NCBI GenBank assembly: GCA_965203345.1
Contig: CBDBCK010000027.1
Coordinates: 87,044-151,043, forward strand
Origin: Dehalococcoidia bacterium
GTDB taxonomy: Bacteria; Chloroflexota; Dehalococcoidia; Lucifugimonadales; Lucifugimonadaceae
Length of the DNA: 64,000 nucleotides
Direction: 5' to 3'
Part shown: piece by piece, positions 40,580-48,291 of the stretch
Layout: the number at the start of each line of letters is the position of its first letter
Position numbering within the stretch: the stretch's first letter is position 1
The notes under the pieces: model-generated
The model's input: the letters and a program-made list of their open reading frames with translations, nothing else
Databases searched by the model: none
What the model was told of the DNA's origin: nothing
Position numbers and translations under genes: made by a program

Positions 40580-41863
40580 ATGTTGGACTATATAGCGGTA
40601 GGCGTTAATATAAAGACTGCGCCTTTGGAGGTGTTGGAACGGCTGTCCGTACCGCCTCACGAACTGCGAGAAGTGCACGAACTTCTGTGCATGGAGTCCG
40701 GTTCAGGAGTGCTGATTTCGACCTGTAACCGCGCCGAAGTTTACTCAGTGTCCGATAGTTCCGGACTGGACGTCAAAGAGCGTATGCTGAAGGAGTATCT
40801 GGACGACCTGTCGTTGCGCCGTTCACTGGATACTGAAGAGAAGGCAAGTGCGTCCCAGTATGCCTTCTCAATATCGGGAAAGGCGGCGGTGGAAAGGCTA
40901 TTTCGCGTTATAGCTGGCCTGGAATCGGTAGCGATAGGCGAGACTCAGGTTATGGGGCAGGTTGTGAGGTCCCTCCGGGCGGCGGGAGAGGCGAGATCCG
41001 TAGAGCCCGCCCTTTCACGTCTGTTTCACGCTGCGTTGCGAACGGGACGACACATCCACTACAAGACAGCTCTCGGACGCCGACAAACGTCAGTGCCCGC
41101 GTTAGGCGTCCGTATGCTTATGGACAAGGACCTGGTTGAAGGTTCAAGCGTCTTACTGTTGGGCGCAGGTGAAACCGGACGGCTCGCGGCTTTAGCTCTG
41201 CGACGTTCAGGCGTCAGAAGTATAACTATAGCTAGCCGCAGGGAGTATAAGGCGGCGCTTCTGGCAGAAGAGCTGGAGGGAAAGACGGTACGGTTTGAGG
41301 ACAGGGCAGAGGCGTTGAGAGAGGTGGACATCCTCGTAACTTGCACCGCTGCTTCAGAACCCGTAATCTGCGGTTCACACGTCAAATCGGCAATCGAAAA
41401 TCGCCCGGAGAGACGGCTTGCAGTCCTCGATCTGGGTATGCCGCGCGACGTAGATCCGAAGGCGGAAGAGATATCTGGCGTAACTCTTCTCACTATAGAG
41501 CGACTGCGTTCCACTATGGACGCCTTGACGCCGGAAGAGCGGGAGACTATTACCCAGGCGGAAGCGATTATAAATGAAGGCATAAGGCGGTTTGATACCC
41601 AGTCAGGCCTGGCGTCAAGTGAGCAGGCAAGGAAGGCGCTGTACCTTCACGCGGAGGAAGTTCGGAGGAAAGAGGTGGACTTCACCGTGCGGAGGCTTGG
41701 AGATTTGACCGATCGTCAGATAGAGCATATAGACGTTATGACGCGTGCCATAGTTAAGAAACTAATGGTGGAACCTGCTAATCTCATGGCGGCGCGTTCG
41801 GAACCGAAGACAGACCAGATCAGCGACTATCTGCAGACGCTGAATATAGGCTCTTTGGAATGA
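40580..41863 (+). CDS. hemA: Glutamyl-tRNA reductase
   Basis: ISTCNRAEVYSV active-site block and NADPH-binding LLLGAGETG. The start is set at Met52 of the listed ORF (ATG 40580, AGGAG at 40572-40576). The upstream 51 codons look non-coding. Confidence 0.9.
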   Translation: MLDYIAVGVNIKTAPLEVLERLSVPPHELREVHELLCMESGSGVLISTCNRAEVYSVSDSSGLDVKERMLKEYLDDLSLRRSLDTEEKASASQYAFSISGKAAVERLFRVIAGLESVAIGETQVMGQVVRSLRAAGEARSVEPALSRLFHAALRTGRHIHYKTALGRRQTSVPALGVRMLMDKDLVEGSSVLLLGAGETGRLAALALRRSGVRSITIASRREYKAALLAEELEGKTVRFEDRAEALREVDILVTCTAASEPVICGSHVKSAIENRPERRLAVLDLGMPRDVDPKAEEISGVTLLTIERLRSTMDALTPEERETITQAEAIINEGIRRFDTQSGLASSEQARKALYLHAEEVRRKEVDFTVRRLGDLTDRQIEHIDVMTRAIVKKLMVEPANLMAARSEPKTDQISDYLQTLNIGSLE

Positions 41864-43143
41864 GCGCGCCTGATCGCAACTCTTCCTTCTTTGAACGTTC
41901 ACTGAGGCTTATGCCTGGAGGCGTGAACAGCCCCGCCCGTTCCTGGCGCGCCGTCGGAGGAGTTCCCCGTTTCATCGCCAAAGGTAAGGGAGCTCACGTG
42001 TGGGACGTTGAGGGCAAACGGTTTGTGGACTATGTCTGTTCATGGGGGGCGATGATACATGGACACTGTCCCGAAGAGGTGACGGAGGCTATCGCGGAGG
42101 CCGCGGCTTGCGGTACGAGCTTTGGCGCACCCACGGAAAGGGAAGCGGTGCTCGCGGAGCTGATAATTGACGCTGTGCCGTCCATTGAGATGGTGCGATT
42201 CGTCAATTCTGGTACAGAGGCAACTATGTCTGCCCTTAGACTCGCAAGAGCTTTTACGGGAAGGGATAAGATACTCAAGTTTTCCGGAGGGTATCACGGA
42301 CACTCGGACTCTCTTTTGGTTGAAGCGGGCTCAGGACTTGCCTCCCACGCAGTGGTGTCGTCCGCGGGGGTTCCCCACTCGTTCGCTCTGGAGACCCTCG
42401 TTGCTCCATACAACAATATAGAGGCGGCGGAGCATATCTTTGAAGCCAATAAAGGCGAGGTTGCAGCCGTCATAGTTGAGCCGATAGCCGGTAATATGGG
42501 GATAGTCCGCCCCGTGGAAGGGTTCCTGGAAGGGTTGCGGCGGCTAACTCTGGAGCATGGCGCCTTGCTCATTTTTGATGAGGTCATAACCGGCTTCAGG
42601 GTTGGATGGGGAGGAGTGCAGGGAGAGACGGGCATTCAGCCAGATATCACCTGTTTAGGTAAGATAGTGGGAGGCGGATTCCCTATAGGCGCATATGGAG
42701 GAAGGGCTGACGTTATGCAGAAGGTGTCTCCCTTGGGGGATATGTATCAGGCGGGCACACTTTCCGGCAACCCCGTGGCTATGGCGGCTGGTATCGCTTC
42801 TCTCAATATGCTTAAAAAGCCAGGCGTATACGATGAGCTCCAAAGTAAAACGGACGCCATAACGGAAGGCGTAGCTTCAGTCCTGTCAAGGGCTGAAATA
42901 AAGTTCCGTATAAACTCTATGCGAGGAGCGTTCACCATCTTCTTTTCACCCGGGGAAGTAACCGATATGGACTCGGCGGCGGGAGCGGATATGGAGGGTT
43001 TCGGAAGATTCTTTCACAAGATGATAGAGCAGGGGATACATCCGCCGCCTTCAGGTTTTGAGGCGTGGTTCGTGTCGTTGGCTCACTCAGACCAGGACAT
43101 ACAGCAGACAATAGAGTCTGTGGAAAAGTGTGTCGACTTTTAA
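41860..43143 (+). CDS. hemL: Glutamate-1-semialdehyde 2,1-aminomutase
   Basis: MPGGVNSPAR, LIFDEVITGFRVGWGG and a PLP-lysine region (LGKIVGGGFP). 4-nt overlap with hemA. Confidence 0.95.
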   Translation: MSAPDRNSSFFERSLRLMPGGVNSPARSWRAVGGVPRFIAKGKGAHVWDVEGKRFVDYVCSWGAMIHGHCPEEVTEAIAEAAACGTSFGAPTEREAVLAELIIDAVPSIEMVRFVNSGTEATMSALRLARAFTGRDKILKFSGGYHGHSDSLLVEAGSGLASHAVVSSAGVPHSFALETLVAPYNNIEAAEHIFEANKGEVAAVIVEPIAGNMGIVRPVEGFLEGLRRLTLEHGALLIFDEVITGFRVGWGGVQGETGIQPDITCLGKIVGGGFPIGAYGGRADVMQKVSPLGDMYQAGTLSGNPVAMAAGIASLNMLKKPGVYDELQSKTDAITEGVASVLSRAEIKFRINSMRGAFTIFFSPGEVTDMDSAAGADMEGFGRFFHKMIEQGIHPPPSGFEAWFVSLAHSDQDIQQTIESVEKCVDF

Positions 43144-43195
43144 ATATATTAGCGATAATATTATTCTGAAGATTCTCCTTCAAGCGGAAATAAGC

Positions 43196-43855
43196 TCATA
43201 GATTTTCGGAAAGGAATCTTCCGACGCCTTCCATCATTGCTTTGACATCTTCTAAAGTATAGTCATCAAACTTTCCATGGACGGCACTATCCCTGATTGC
43301 TTTCCATGCTTGAATTTGTCTCTGTGTAAACCTGTTATAAACCTTTGCATCAGCAAGTTTTGTATTTAGTGATCCAATATCGTCATTACTTTTTACTGGA
43401 AGACTGTTCTTAGCGGAAATTTTTCTAAGGCCGTCTTCCAGAACAGCACCAATCAGAGACGCCGCGGGATCTTTATAGCCAGCTTCTAATAGGTGCTGAG
43501 TCATATCCAAGAAATCAGTAAATATCTCAGTAAGGACAAGGTCTTTAATCTGATCTAGGAAACCAAGCTCTAAATCCTCTTTTAACGCCTTCAAAATACC
43601 AATGCCAACACTCAAATGACTCGTATACCCTTGCCTGACAAGGTTGAGAAAATTTTCGTGGTAATGACTATCTTTCCCAACAACCCTTATAATCAAATTT
43701 TCCACACCGACTTTCCACTCAAAAAATTCTTCGTCACTCAGAGTAGGAAAACTACTCCTTCCTGGAGGATTAGGCGTGTCAGTTTTTCTAACCACCTCAG
43801 CTTTGGATAATAATTGATCTATGCGTTCGATAAGTTTGTCTTGCAACGTTGCCAA
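43196..43855 (-). CDS. Hypothetical protein with a C-terminal HEPN-like (Rx4H) helical domain
   Basis: R188-DSAV-H193 (nt 43277-43294) lies in a predicted helical C-terminal half (AASLIGAVLEDGLRKI...QAWKAIRDSAVHGKF...AMMEGVGRF). AT-rich gene, 19 nt downstream of the RM fusion gene. Confidence 0.5.
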   Translation of the reverse strand: MATLQDKLIERIDQLLSKAEVVRKTDTPNPPGRSSFPTLSDEEFFEWKVGVENLIIRVVGKDSHYHENFLNLVRQGYTSHLSVGIGILKALKEDLELGFLDQIKDLVLTEIFTDFLDMTQHLLEAGYKDPAASLIGAVLEDGLRKISAKNSLPVKSNDDIGSLNTKLADAKVYNRFTQRQIQAWKAIRDSAVHGKFDDYTLEDVKAMMEGVGRFLSENL

Positions 43856-43874
43856 TGTACGTTATCCTCTCAAG

Positions 43875-46800
43875 TTATTTTGAAGACGCTTCTTCAACCG
43901 TTTTGATTTCCTCTGCCGTGAGACCGTAGAGGTTGTAGACAAGCTGGTCTATCTCTTTTTCGTATTCGCGGACTTCTGCTTGCTGGGCTGTGTTTCCTAA
44001 GTAGTCGTCTTCTTCGGTACTAGAAAGAATTTTATTGACTAGATTAATTATGATTTTCCTTTCATTTTCTGAAATATCTGGGACAGGGAGATTGTTTATC
44101 ATGTCAGGTGTGAAGGTTATACCCTGGTTATAACTAGATGCAGGATACCTCTCTTTTATATATAAAATTGGTAGGTTGCTATTTAGGAGACCAAGCAAAA
44201 ATTTTAATTCTGTAATGTCTTGGTTGACCACAACAAGTGTGGGTATACCGGGGATAGTAGAACCATCTTGATCTAAACATACATCAAGCAGATTTAGCCC
44301 TTTTATAATTAATTTCGGCTGTAGCGACCTTCGAGAGTACAATGAATTCTGGAAAATTTCTAAGAACCTAGTTTTACTAACTACAGGTTGCTTATAACTG
44401 TTTCTAAGATATGTCATTCTTCGGGTTCCCCACTTACTGTAGTATTTGCCTATAGTACCAGTGTTTACAACCTTGAGATTTTCAGAGTCAAGTGCAGATC
44501 CTTGGAGTTCTTTTATTAATGGTCTAAGTTGATAAGCATCATTTGTAGCACAAGCGTTCTGACAAGTGGCAATATCAGATAAAGTTGCTTTAAAACGCTC
44601 AAGCTTTCGTATAAAATTCAATGAACTTGAAAACAAATAATCAAATGTGAACGGTGTGGATAGCGAAATTTTAGCGACAGTTCTCATTAATTGAAATTTC
44701 CCATTCTCAAATTCTAAAATTTCTACATTAGTTTTATCTCCACTACTGAAAAGAGAAACAATTGAGTCAACACTTGCATCTTCAAACACTCTTCTTCCAG
44801 CTTTCATAAGGATTGATATTTTCCCAATGGTGGCAGTTCTAAACTCTTTTCCAAATGGTCTGGATAACCATTTATCAGGGGTTATGAATGTTAAGACACT
44901 ATTATTGTTCATTAATCGAAAGCCAATTTCGAAAAAGGCGATGTACATATCCCAACTACCTCTAGTCCAAATAAAAGTTTCTCTGATACGCTTACGTAAA
45001 TGGGCTTGTTCTCCATTACTCATATCTCTTGAATTAACATACGGCGGATTGGCTATCACCACATCAAACCCTTTCTTTTCGTGGAACACTTCCGAGAAGT
45101 ACACTTCAAAATCAAAGTCCTTGTGGCCGTTGGTGATTTTGCTGATGAGATCGTCAATTTGCTTTTTGTATTGCTGCTTTTTTTCCGCGCTGGTTTCATT
45201 GAAGTACAGCGGCTTCAATTCCTCCAGCTCACCGAACAAGTCATTATTCAGAATATCTCTCTTTACACTCAAAAGCGAGTTGCCCTGCACGATTTTGTAA
45301 TCCAGATTAGGCAGAGGCTGAATGGTCTCGCGTTCCTCTTCGTCCACAACCAGTGACAGCCATAAACGCAGCTTGGCGATTTCCACGGCACTGGGGTCAA
45401 TGTCCACACCATACAGGCAATTTTGAATCGCCTGTCGTTTGAAGTGATAGGGGCTGCGCGCTCCATTCTCACCAATGTAAGGGGTAAGCGCGTTTCTCAC
45501 CCCGATGATCTCGTTCATCATACCCACCGGAAACGCACCTGATCCAACAGCCGGATCACAAACGCGAATTCCCGCAAGCTGCCGGTCAATGAACTTGGCT
45601 TGATCGCGTACACCTTGAGGCAGTTTAAAGGAATATCTTTCTGTCTCACGGCCTTCGTCTATTATACGACTGTCGTGTTCTACCACGGACTCGCCGTGTT
45701 TGATAAGCTTTTCAATGTCTTCTTTACTCACTTTACCATCCAGTTCAATCACTAGATAGTTGATCAGGCTTTCTTGGCACATGTAATGGACGATCTCGCG
45801 CGGGGTATAGTAGGTGCCTTTGGACTTGCGATCTTTCACCTCCAAGAGATTTTCAAAGACCTTGCCGAGCATCTCTGGATCAACTGCCACTTCCTTTTCC
45901 AGAGGCTCGTCTTCTTTGACGGTAAAGTTGTAACGGTCAAAAACATCCAAGACCCCATCGCCGAGGTCACCTTCTTTCGTTTTATTGCCATTAGAGAATA
46001 GTTTATTTGGAATAAGAATGTCTGTATTTACCCAGTCGTAATCATTAATAGGATCAAATAGACCTCCATTCAAAAAAGGAATACGACATTTAAATCGGCT
46101 GTAGTAGTCATCCGAACGTTCCAATCGTAAAGCTTCGTAGAACAACGGTTCAAAAATATCATTAAAGAAATTCACATAATCTCCATGTTTCTTGTTAAAA
46201 AGCTCCCGCAAAAAGTGTTTTGCGCCGGAACCCCATGGTTCGCCGCGCCTTACGCCAAACCAGCCTTTCTTCTGCAAGAAGTAGAGGAAGATGATCTGCC
46301 CGAGGAATTTCTTGGTAAAGTCCGCAGTATCAATATCTTTCTTTTCAAAATCAGCCTTAATTTTAGCGTCTTTTTTAACAATTTCGTCAAGCGATTCCTT
46401 AAGTCCAACGAAAAGGTTTCGGTACCTTTCAAAGAACTCCTTGGTAACGGTTTCAACGCCGAAAGCTTCTTCTAAATTTTCAAGAAACGGTGATTCATCA
46501 TCCTCACGCAAGAGTGGTATAAGCCGGCTCTGTGCTGTGTGGCTGTTTTCGTTTTCGCCGACCAAAAATGAATAGCGGCGGGCGGGGGTGAATTTCTCTT
46601 CCACCTTGCCACTCTCGTTGAATGTGTATTCCATCTTCACAAAGGAAAACCGCCAGTCGGCACTGTCTGGCGCAACAAATGCCGCGAGCGCCGCGTCTTT
46701 CATGTCGCGCTGTTTGAGATAATCGGCGACAAAGTTCCGCAAAGAAGCTCTTGCTCTTTCAATAGAGTTTGCTTTCTGCAAATAGACAATCAGCAGGTCG

Positions 46801-47012
46801 GTTTTTCTGTCTTCCGAATCCGTATAAGTACCTAATCTTTCATATGTCTTGATAGTATTTTTGAACTTTTCTTTTATATAACCCCTGCTGTGAAAGGCTT
46901 TCTCTTCATCAAATCTATTCAGGATATTTTTAAGTAAATAGACAAAGAGATCTTTGTCAAAAGGCCTCTGTAAGGTCTCCTGAACAAGTTTTTTTGCGGC
47001 GACGGTATCCAT
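43875..47012 (-). CDS. Type IIG / Eco57I-family restriction-modification fusion protein (gamma-class N6-adenine DNA methyltransferase with a TaqI-like C-terminal specificity domain)
   Basis: GTYYTPREIVHYM, motif I CDPAVGSGAFP and motif IV VIANPPYV. C-terminal LLGLLNSNLPILYIK...QLVYNLYGLTAEEIKTVE tail is typical of this family. 1045 aa. Confidence 0.85.
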   Translation of the reverse strand: MDTVAAKKLVQETLQRPFDKDLFVYLLKNILNRFDEEKAFHSRGYIKEKFKNTIKTYERLGTYTDSEDRKTDLLIVYLQKANSIERARASLRNFVADYLKQRDMKDAALAAFVAPDSADWRFSFVKMEYTFNESGKVEEKFTPARRYSFLVGENENSHTAQSRLIPLLREDDESPFLENLEEAFGVETVTKEFFERYRNLFVGLKESLDEIVKKDAKIKADFEKKDIDTADFTKKFLGQIIFLYFLQKKGWFGVRRGEPWGSGAKHFLRELFNKKHGDYVNFFNDIFEPLFYEALRLERSDDYYSRFKCRIPFLNGGLFDPINDYDWVNTDILIPNKLFSNGNKTKEGDLGDGVLDVFDRYNFTVKEDEPLEKEVAVDPEMLGKVFENLLEVKDRKSKGTYYTPREIVHYMCQESLINYLVIELDGKVSKEDIEKLIKHGESVVEHDSRIIDEGRETERYSFKLPQGVRDQAKFIDRQLAGIRVCDPAVGSGAFPVGMMNEIIGVRNALTPYIGENGARSPYHFKRQAIQNCLYGVDIDPSAVEIAKLRLWLSLVVDEEERETIQPLPNLDYKIVQGNSLLSVKRDILNNDLFGELEELKPLYFNETSAEKKQQYKKQIDDLISKITNGHKDFDFEVYFSEVFHEKKGFDVVIANPPYVNSRDMSNGEQAHLRKRIRETFIWTRGSWDMYIAFFEIGFRLMNNNSVLTFITPDKWLSRPFGKEFRTATIGKISILMKAGRRVFEDASVDSIVSLFSSGDKTNVEILEFENGKFQLMRTVAKISLSTPFTFDYLFSSSLNFIRKLERFKATLSDIATCQNACATNDAYQLRPLIKELQGSALDSENLKVVNTGTIGKYYSKWGTRRMTYLRNSYKQPVVSKTRFLEIFQNSLYSRRSLQPKLIIKGLNLLDVCLDQDGSTIPGIPTLVVVNQDITELKFLLGLLNSNLPILYIKERYPASSYNQGITFTPDMINNLPVPDISENERKIIINLVNKILSSTEEDDYLGNTAQQAEVREYEKEIDQLVYNLYGLTAEEIKTVEEASSK

Positions 47013-47159
47013 ATAAGCTGTTCTCAGGGATTGGGACGATAAACAGAATGCAGAATTTGCCCAGCGACTACCTCAGTCTGGGGTCGTGAATTTGTGACCA
47101 GTTTTAGGTTGGAGCGATTAACCATAGTTATTGAAGTAAATCATCAACGTTTGTTTTGC

Positions 47160-47249
47160 TGGCGGAGAGGACAGGATTCGAACCTGCGGTGCGCTTACGC
47201 GCACACACGCTTTCCAAGCGTGCCCATTAAGCCGCTCTGGCACCTCTCC
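47160..47249 (-). tRNA. tRNA-Ser (anticodon GGA), long variable arm, CCA encoded
   Basis: Minus strand reads GGAGAGG-TG-CCAGAGCGGCTTAATGG-GCACGC-TTGGAAA-GCGTG-TGTGCGCGTAAGCGCAC-CGCAGGTTCGAATCCTGT-CCTCTCC-G-CCA. Confidence 0.9.
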
Positions 47250-48201: not shown

Positions 48202-48291
48202 TGGCGGAGAGGGCGGGATTCGAACCCGCGATGCACAGATGCACATACCGGTTTTCGAAACCGGCGCCTTAAGCCGCTCAGCCACCTCTCC
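48202..48291 (-). tRNA. tRNA-Ser (anticodon CGA), long variable arm, CCA encoded
   Basis: Minus strand reads GGAGAGG-TG-GCTGAGCGGCTTAAGGC-GCCGGT-TTCGAAA-ACCGG-TATGTGCATCTGTGCAT-CGCGGGTTCGAATCCCGC-CCTCTCC-G-CCA. Confidence 0.9.

Follow-up and report, generated by a model that had tools for sequence, protein, structure and literature searches.

An Eco57I-type methylase without its usual helicase-nuclease gene alongside, and the HEPN protein next to it, in a compositionally foreign islet of a Dehalococcoidia bacterium

Introduction

When two genes that resemble defence genes stand together among housekeeping genes, the question arises whether they form one system, two separate ones, or the remains of something larger. 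We address this question for a 64,000-nucleotide (nt) stretch of a Dehalococcoidia bacterium (NCBI GenBank assembly GCA_965203345.1, contig CBDBCK010000027.1, positions 87,044 to 151,043 of the forward strand), hereafter called the window, in which an islet at 43144-47159 holds two intact, co-oriented minus-strand genes between hemL and tRNA-Ser(GGA). One encodes a 1045-amino acid (aa) protein with an N6-adenine methyltransferase domain, the other a 219-aa protein with the Rx4H motif of HEPN proteins. An earlier note, made from the sequence without database searches, described the pair as a type IIG restriction-modification (RM) fusion plus a HEPN-like protein, and put it forward as a candidate for an uncharacterised defence module.

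Our analysis leads to a more modest answer. The islet is compositionally foreign, and with somewhat better than even confidence we read it as a defence locus that arrived by horizontal transfer, has since been reduced, and consists of two modules that can be separated. The larger gene belongs to a methylase family that is nearly always encoded beside a helicase-nuclease, a gene that is absent here, and the smaller belongs to a HEPN family that accompanies many different defence systems. We take it for a fairly ordinary, probably decayed defence islet and not a new system.

The methylase and its absent partner

The methylase gene (43875..47012, minus strand, ATG start) encodes an Eco57I-domain N6-adenine methylase with a target-recognition domain (TRD). 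Pfam Eco57I matches aa 531-727 (7.7e-36) and MmeI_Mtase aa 475-710, N6_Mtase is matched as well, and both motif I (DPAVGSGAF, aa ~486-494) and motif IV (NPPY, aa 655) are intact. The catalytic core extends over aa ~475-760 (44733..45590, minus strand) according to Pfam and to a profile search of the Protein Data Bank (PDB), and is followed by a C-terminal target-recognition region (aa ~761-1045; 43878..44732, minus strand) in which TaqI_C weakly matches aa 889-977. With the full-length protein the PDB profile search matched CamA (7lni), M.BseCI, PglX (8c45) and M.TaqI, the profile running through the TRDs of CamA and M.BseCI to profile position ~1035; MmeI (5hr4) and DrdV (7lo5) gave marginal matches, in the methylase core only. 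The family is large, with more than 8000 matches at E<=1e-20, and PF12950 is precomputed in many of the homologues.

Where the family is found in other genomes, it has company. We compared 22 methylase-family loci, 16 of them from IMG/VR, four with the three closest full-length homologues, and two in megabase contigs, with N-terminal regions resembling that of the window protein. Just upstream of the methylase gene in 20 of the 22, immediately or after one small open reading frame (ORF), lies a gene for a ~1065-aa protein that joins HKD (PLDc_2) and SNF2 domains; the methylases of these helicase-bearing loci are 37-69% identical to the window protein, and the two remaining loci (L068, L071) retain C-terminal helicase remnants only. 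PADLOC labels the HKD+SNF2 protein best as the candidate 'C3a139 HKD+Snf2', with DrmD next. No such gene is present in the whole 64-kb window, and tblastn with four helicase seeds (E<=10) found no helicase remnant between the methylase ATG and tRNA-Ser. The slot that the helicase gene fills in other methylase loci is occupied here by the leader, 147 nt of presumed promoter region between tRNA-Ser and the ATG (47013..47159, minus strand), which is 95-98% identical to its counterpart in L058, a sister contig described below.

The earlier note found no separate endonuclease and no BREX or DISARM partners. The absence of a separate endonuclease is not a neutral feature, given the upstream partner in 20 of 22 family loci. 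Because the family's usual HKD+SNF2 partner is missing, we regard the locus as a reduced system rather than a new one, and the fact that the family is almost always encoded with this partner suggests that cleavage is supplied in trans. Judged by its genomic context, the window methylase would be the methylase and specificity half of a split helicase-nuclease system whose restriction half has been lost.

An alternative, which continues the reading of the earlier note, is that the 1045-aa protein combines nuclease, methylase and TRD in a single polypeptide and so works alone as a type IIG enzyme, and that the HEPN gene supplies a toxin which is auxiliary to it or simply its neighbour; the islet would then hold two layers of defence. 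The REBASE-derived PADLOC model PDLC03596 (REase_MTase_IIG) does match the protein end to end (E=1.9e-261, 869 bits), and its ORF is intact, with a TRD that has diversified in two genomes although no helicase gene accompanies it. The N-terminal 400 aa (45813..47012, minus strand) are predicted to form an alpha/beta domain, with strands at aa 54-152, and then a helical spacer. The alpha/beta domain, ~150 aa in length, is conserved and has invariant acidic and basic residues, which also speaks for this alternative. Yet no PD-(D/E)XK or other nuclease signature was found in these 400 aa: the alignment of the N-terminal region contains no conserved (D/E)xK motif, lenient scans of 15 family members detected no Pfam nuclease family there (MmeI_hel matched marginally in 3 of the 15), a profile search of PDB sequences with the region returned nothing, and an AlphaFold2 (AF2) model of aa 1-400 (pLDDT 74) gave no meaningful Foldseek match in the PDB. 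The marginal relatedness to MmeI and DrdV and the near-constant HKD nuclease-SNF2 helicase partner of the family point the same way, and we consider a self-sufficient enzyme unlikely. The type IIG description given by the earlier note holds as far as the methylase, its TRD and the profile label are concerned; a nuclease domain could not be demonstrated.

The HKD+SNF2 gene (~1065 aa) followed by the Eco57I-domain methylase/TRD gene (~1050-1120 aa) is a conserved two-gene module in its own right (L066-L085, L091 and L092; for example L084:1803-8153 and L091:2304-9255), in which PADLOC gives the methylase the label 'type IIG', and the gene after the methylase is mostly unannotated. Beside the pair in L084 (8150-11252) lie a Dcm-type C5 methylase, Vsr and a GHKL (MORC-like) ATPase, with a Cas6 gene upstream and a serine recombinase downstream, in what is a dense defence island.

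The HEPN protein

The HEPN gene (43196..43855, minus strand, TTG start) encodes a 219-aa protein that carries Rx4H as R188-DSAV-H193. R188, H193 and also E140 are invariant in 28 of 28 aligned sequences of the family. The AF2 model is all-helical and of high confidence (pLDDT 90.5), and in Foldseek its C-terminal ~110 aa match the HEPN protein 2hsb (TMt 0.72, root-mean-square deviation 2.0 Å, prob 1.0); 2q00, 1o3u and the HepT toxins 7ae8, 7bxo and 6m6u are matched as well. The whole-chain E-values are weak because half of the protein aligns. The chain divides into a variable helical domain at the N-terminus (aa 1-~100) and the HEPN domain with R188 and H193 (aa ~100-219), and the median identity of relatives to the window protein is 44% in the former and 66% in the latter.

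None of the Pfam, PADLOC, NCBIfam or PHROG models matches the window protein, and a Pfam HEPN match is lacking even at E<=10. The family is not wholly invisible to Pfam, as PF05168 weakly matches 24 of the 28 homologues (best 3e-7) and DUF4145 matches four. Nothing in the 219-aa protein matched a P-loop or an ATPase family. With its invariant motif, its fold and the weak PF05168 matches of its family, it is a genuine HEPN-fold Rx4H protein, as the earlier note had suspected.

Neighbourhoods of the HEPN family

A profile search of 1.84 billion representatives places the window protein in a large family, with 4585 clusters (at 50% identity) at E<=1e-3, 2788 at 1e-10 and 750 at 1e-30. The protein has more than 600 close homologues at 50-70% identity. 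Nearly all members are stand-alone proteins of ~220 aa. None was found in IMG/VR viral contigs. The window protein is nearer to proteins of Patescibacteria and Thermodesulfobacteriota than to those of Chloroflexi.

We examined the neighbourhoods of HEPN genes in 57 loci of species-representative genomes and in several metagenomic contigs. Where the HEPN protein is at least ~44% identical to that of the window, genes for RM methylases, helicases or specificity subunits occur within 6 kb in 15 of 22 loci, mostly directly adjacent to or overlapping the HEPN gene, so that the linkage to RM or methylase genes in other genomes, on which the earlier note had made its proposal depend, does exist for the HEPN family. 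The systems involved are diverse. The type I arrangement hsdM-[HEPN]-hsdS...hsdR occurs in L008, L012, L014, L015, L032 and L056, and in L089 the HEPN gene comes last in a type I operon, 3' of hsdS-hsdR-YgjP. It lies beside Mod and Res in a type III-like context in L004, L006, L007, L010, L017 and L024, follows a type II methylase in L086, overlaps the end of a CD-NTase/Cap15 operon of CBASS in L003 and L062-65, and adjoins an SLFN-type helicase in L013, an OLD-type ABC ATPase in L044 and an AAA_13 ATPase in L036. The RM systems linked to the HEPN gene keep their own nuclease subunits.

The closest relatives of the window HEPN protein (62-67% identity) sit by five different types of system, and for this reason we conclude that the HEPN gene behaves as a free-standing passenger of defence islands rather than as a partner reserved for any single system. 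We also considered whether the HEPN phylogeny tracks the type of the neighbouring system, as a sign of co-evolution, and rejected this, since the nearest relatives stand beside five different systems.

Its pairing with the methylase is lineage-specific. A relative of the window methylase occurs in 1 of the 57 HEPN loci, as a weak match ~9 kb away on the other strand, and is adjacent in 0 of 57. Conversely, none of the 22 other methylase-family loci contains the gene of this HEPN family, and the gene that follows the methylase varies among them, encoding unknown proteins of 428 aa, of 172 plus 1051 aa, or of 832 aa. The pairing was seen only in the window and in the sister contig L058, and the proposal of an unnamed two-gene defence module is not supported.

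A further possibility is that the HEPN-family protein has a housekeeping function in binding or processing RNA and that its place beside the methylase is incidental. In about ten Dehalococcoidia loci, from metagenome-assembled genomes (MAGs; L020, L023, L027, L031, L033-L035, L037 and L039), a homologue lies in a conserved housekeeping context without RM genes nearby, which we infer from cluster sizes and pooled Pfam counts to be lspA-rluD-[HEPN]-gltX. These homologues are only 37-47% identical to the window protein, whereas in the subfamily to which the window protein belongs 15 of the 22 loci have RM genes no farther than 6 kb away; moreover, the window gene is foreign in composition and its product is closer to proteins of Patescibacteria and Thermodesulfobacteriota than to those of Chloroflexi. 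We give scarcely any credence to a housekeeping role for the window protein, and the Dehalococcoidia loci hint at a non-defence or domesticated branch of the HEPN family.

Several arrangements among the relatives are of interest in themselves. In L062 (6495-9326; also L063-L065 and L003) a HEPN homologue of 64% identity overlaps the stop codon of the CBASS CD-NTase and Cap15 operon; in the L062 group an unannotated 215-aa gene follows the HEPN gene, and a PvuII-like RM system with two methylases lies alongside. Among the closest relatives of the window HEPN protein, a 334-338-aa protein without Pfam or PADLOC match is encoded with a 4-nt overlap (translational coupling) at the HEPN 3' end (L059:3362-4378 and L086:3632-4636; also L060, L061 and L087); it has no counterpart in the window. 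Behind the gene for the closest homologue outside the sister contig (68% identity; L088:289-1601) lies another HEPN gene, one of AbiV type.

Foreign composition and allelic exchange

The islet has a G+C content of 40.9%, against a mean of 49.3% (standard deviation 1.1, minimum 47.1) for non-overlapping 4-kb segments of the window, which corresponds to a z of about -7.5 and makes it the lowest-G+C 4 kb of the 64 kb. Third codon positions agree (GC3 of 0.43 in the methylase gene and 0.35 in the HEPN gene, compared with 0.52-0.58 in neighbouring genes). The foreign composition claimed by the earlier note is thus borne out. Its hand-counted rows of 28-38% G+C describe the AT-richest part of the islet, the TRD region at 44026-45064 (35%), but not the islet at large, as the methylase-coding part has 44-49% and the stretch 45000-46000 has 46-49%.

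A single close relative of the locus is available. L058, an ENA contig of 27.6 kb with ~95-96% DNA identity to the window, has the order corC-like, glmU-like, tRNA-Ser(CGA), tRNA-Ser(GGA), methylase (1111 aa), HEPN (215 aa), hemL and hemA; its methylase is likewise of the Eco57I type, and the HKD+SNF2 gene is missing there too. Beyond L058, the next relatives of hemL are ~60-63% identical, in Chloroflexi and Dehalococcoidia MAGs. The earlier note had allowed for an ancestral locus, present in all relatives with native composition. The comparison answers this point only by half: the sole close relative does carry both genes at the same site, but they are low in G+C there as well (methylase 43.9%, HEPN 36.0%).

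Although the two genomes are otherwise very similar, part of the islet is not. Sliding identity per 60-nt row in a MAFFT alignment delimits a diverged tract at 43609..46519, which covers methylase aa ~165-1045 and HEPN aa 1-~83, and blastn blocks give the same borders. Outside the tract the identity is 90-100%. Within it, identity drops to 57-88% over the spacer and the methylase and, in the TRD, to ~35%, too low to align; the TRD sequence is unrelated to that of the L058 allele. Over the methylase C-terminus and the first ~83 HEPN codons identity is 22-82%. The C-terminal halves of the HEPN proteins are 92% identical, with R and H kept, and the N-terminal halves far less so; the N-terminal half of the L058 protein is an outlier within the HEPN family. 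In both genomes, which differ by ~5% in their backbone, the two ORFs are full length and the catalytic motifs intact. The simplest reading is that the tract is an allelic replacement by homologous recombination. Since the replaced tract covers both genes, its donor must have carried methylase and HEPN genes side by side, and it follows that the pair persisted as a unit in the gene pool of this lineage while the specificity of the methylase was exchanged.

These observations bear on the possibility that the islet is a decaying remnant without a role in defence, its methylase an orphan or inactive and its HEPN gene a leftover passenger. The loss of the helicase gene is what one would expect of such a remnant, as are the remnant-only loci L068 and L071 elsewhere, the lack of an integrase or other mobility genes, and flanks without other defence genes. 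A decaying locus would hardly maintain full-length ORFs and intact catalytic motifs in two genomes ~5% apart, however, nor keep a fresh allelic replacement that covers the TRD in frame, nor preserve the HEPN C-terminal half at 92% identity with R and H intact. We therefore regard a remnant devoid of defence function as quite improbable.

The same tract is among the arguments for a functional tie between the two genes, in which the HEPN RNase would have taken the effector place of the HKD-helicase in a methylation-gated abortive infection system, the methylase/TRD recognising unmethylated sites on incoming DNA and activating the RNase. The genes are 19 nt apart, the HEPN gene has its own Shine-Dalgarno sequence, two genomes have kept the pair, the replaced tract joins methylase C-terminus and TRD to the HEPN N-terminal domain from a donor that had both adjacent, and in other loci the place after the methylase is taken by accessory genes that vary. 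We nevertheless hold such coupling very doubtful: the pairing was not seen outside this lineage, with an adjacent methylase relative in none of the 57 HEPN loci and no HEPN gene in the methylase loci sampled from other lineages; the RM systems linked to HEPN genes retain their own nuclease subunits; HEPN proteins 62-67% identical to that of the window adjoin unrelated systems; and a contiguous recombination tract requires no functional coupling. In its most specific form, the idea would be that the HEPN RNase replaced the HKD-SNF2 nuclease and that unmethylated sites read by the methylase/TRD switch it on through the fast-evolving HEPN N-terminal domain, a proposal to which we would attach very little weight. 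If it were true, the islet would represent a hybrid between restriction and abortive infection that cuts RNA instead of DNA, and the joint replacement of TRD and HEPN N-terminal domain between the sister genomes would reflect co-adapted interacting surfaces.

Proposed function

We hypothesize that the 1045-aa protein was the methyltransferase-plus-specificity component of a two-gene, ATP-dependent restriction-like system, in which an HKD/PLD nuclease fused to an SNF2 helicase was the partner of the Eco57I-domain methylase/TRD, and that the helicase-nuclease gene was lost in this lineage. What is left would most likely act as a solitary, site-specific N6-adenine DNA methylase, a function we propose because motifs I and IV and the reading frames are intact in both genomes, and its target specificity may have been swapped by allelic recombination between the sister genomes.

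For the 219-aa protein, analogy with PrrC, HepT and other HEPN effectors makes a latent RNase the most likely role, with a composite active site that would form on dimerisation. The variable N-terminal domain may both restrain the RNase and detect the trigger. On phage infection, or in response to an anti-defence factor, the RNase would be released, cut cellular or viral RNA and abort the infection. We further propose that the HEPN gene rides beside many defence systems as a backup layer and is not tied to this methylase. At least 16 HEPN clades have been linked to RM systems, for which a PrrC-like second-line model was proposed (2013, Anantharaman et al., PMC3710099), and HEPN has been described as a backup effector in BREX-related systems (PMC12839542).

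Several observations pull away from this reading of a reduced locus with two separable modules. The sample of methylase loci is small (22), partly redundant and drawn largely from IMG/VR contigs, and the helicase gene might sit elsewhere in the genome, outside the 64-kb window that was searched. The conserved residues of the N-terminal alpha/beta domain (E58, D72, R88, R92, N93, K105) could belong to a divergent nuclease, in which case the protein would be a type IIG enzyme that needs no partner. The HEPN family is not exclusively linked to defence, as the distant Dehalococcoidia homologues in their housekeeping context indicate, and a replaced tract that extends over both genes would also fit co-adaptation of the methylase C-terminus and the HEPN N-terminal domain.

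Relation to known systems

The HEPN proteins linked to RM systems (PMC3710099; HEPN-T/PF05168-like) resemble the window protein in the Rx4H motif, the four-helix fold (2hsb, 1o3u, 2q00), the stand-alone form, the recurrence with several types of RM operon and the predicted role as a second-line RNase. The window family differs in adding a ~100-aa, family-specific helical domain at the N-terminus, and the window protein lies below the Pfam HEPN thresholds and has no adjacent MNT nucleotidyltransferase. HepT of the HepT/MNT pairs also shares the HEPN fold and Rx4H, but the window protein is ~90 aa longer, with its distinct N-terminal domain, and no MNT antitoxin gene was found beside the HEPN gene in the window (there is no ORF toward hemL or the methylase) or in the neighbourhoods examined.

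PrrC, from the EcoprrI type Ic RM locus, is alike in that the gene for a HEPN-type RNase is embedded in or adjoins an RM operon. In six genome loci the HEPN homologue separates hsdM from hsdS, a placement similar to that of prrC inside hsdMSR, and the shared idea is that of a latent RNase freed once restriction has been neutralised. PrrC, and also RloC, has an N-terminal ABC ATPase domain, however, which the all-helical 219-aa protein lacks, and the window partner is not of type I and appears without a nuclease. A dedicated guard that works by protein-protein contact is made less likely by the very close HEPN homologues, which accompany unrelated systems.

Type IIG and IIL enzymes (Eco57I, MmeI, DrdV) are comparable to the 1045-aa protein in being one large polypeptide that runs from an N-terminal region through a helical spacer and a gamma-class NPPY methylase to a TRD. 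They differ in that a nuclease domain is not demonstrable here, that the similarity to MmeI and DrdV is marginal, and that the window family usually comes with a separate HKD+SNF2 protein. This last feature recalls the systems that combine a helicase-nuclease with a methylase, namely Type ISP (LlaGI/LlaBIII), the BREX-related Type-2 BR systems, which carry an HKD+Swi2/Snf2 effector (PMC12839542), Hma (PMC11232893) and DISARM (DrmD/DrmMI). The relatives of the window methylase pair with HKD-SNF2 proteins that score as C3a139 and DrmD, and the methylase itself partly matches DrmMI and PglX. In contrast to these systems, the window has no helicase, DUF499 ATPase, DUF3780 or DrmA/B/C, and the related loci are two-gene modules whereas the systems described have three to five genes.

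Assignment of the islet to one of the named systems was rejected in each case. For BREX, the PglX-level score was not reached (NCBIfam BREX_1_MTaseX, 75.6 bits against a cut-off of 500), and there are no further genes between hemL and the tRNA gene, hence no PglZ or BrxC. For DISARM, the match to DrmMI is only partial (5.5e-30, PADLOC; that to PglX is also partial), and the window contains no helicase or PLD gene. For MANTIS and Hma, the partner genes are absent.

Borders of the islet

ORF and ARAGORN calls confirm the layout given by the earlier note, two co-oriented minus-strand genes 19 nt apart between hemL and tRNA-Ser(GGA). The intergenic spacer (43856..43874, minus strand) carries the Shine-Dalgarno-like GAGAGGA, 9 nt upstream of the TTG start of the HEPN gene. 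No terminator-like site was found between the two genes, which are probably co-transcribed, and the counts from promoter and terminator scans were not above shuffled expectation.

One border is the tRNA-Ser(GGA) gene itself (47160..47249, minus strand; ARAGORN), which has its 3' end towards the islet, at a distance of 147 nt upstream from the methylase ATG, in the same arrangement as in L058. The other is hemL (41860..43143, plus strand), identified by its ORF and the names of homologues as the gene for glutamate-1-semialdehyde aminomutase; it has native composition (54.8% G+C), ends at 43143 and is convergent with the HEPN gene, 52 nt away. A tRNA gene at the edge of foreign DNA brings to mind a classical tRNA-integrated island. 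We rejected this reading, because no integrase ORF was found and no att-like direct repeat of the tRNA-Ser 3' end was found at the far border. The flanks of the islet hold no further defence genes, the neighbours being housekeeping genes.

A 24-nt inverted repeat, 83% complementary (42991-43014 / 43211-43234), spans the place where hemL and the HEPN gene converge with their 3' ends, and could be a shared terminator or a chance match. Two tRNA-Ser genes that are 77% identical, GGA (47160-47249) and CGA (48202-48291), are separated by 1 kb on the minus strand, and between them are two small overlapping ORFs of 122 and 149 aa without a family match, an arrangement also kept in L058.

Significance

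A specialist would not be very surprised by this islet, as the association of HEPN RNases with RM systems is a principle set out in 2013 (PMC3710099), and the particular pairing seen here is confined to one lineage. What is modestly new lies in the two families. The HEPN family is large, with 750 or more clusters at 50% identity, but it has no name, and neither Pfam, PADLOC, NCBIfam nor PHROG has a model for it; we propose it as a candidate 'backup' effector of abortive infection. The 'type IIG' family to which the methylase belongs appears normally to depend on a helicase-nuclease, and proteins that profiles label as type IIG RM enzymes may therefore be the methylase half of a two-gene HKD-SNF2 system. 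Those that stand without the partner would then probably be orphan methylases, which would affect defence censuses that count them as complete RM systems.

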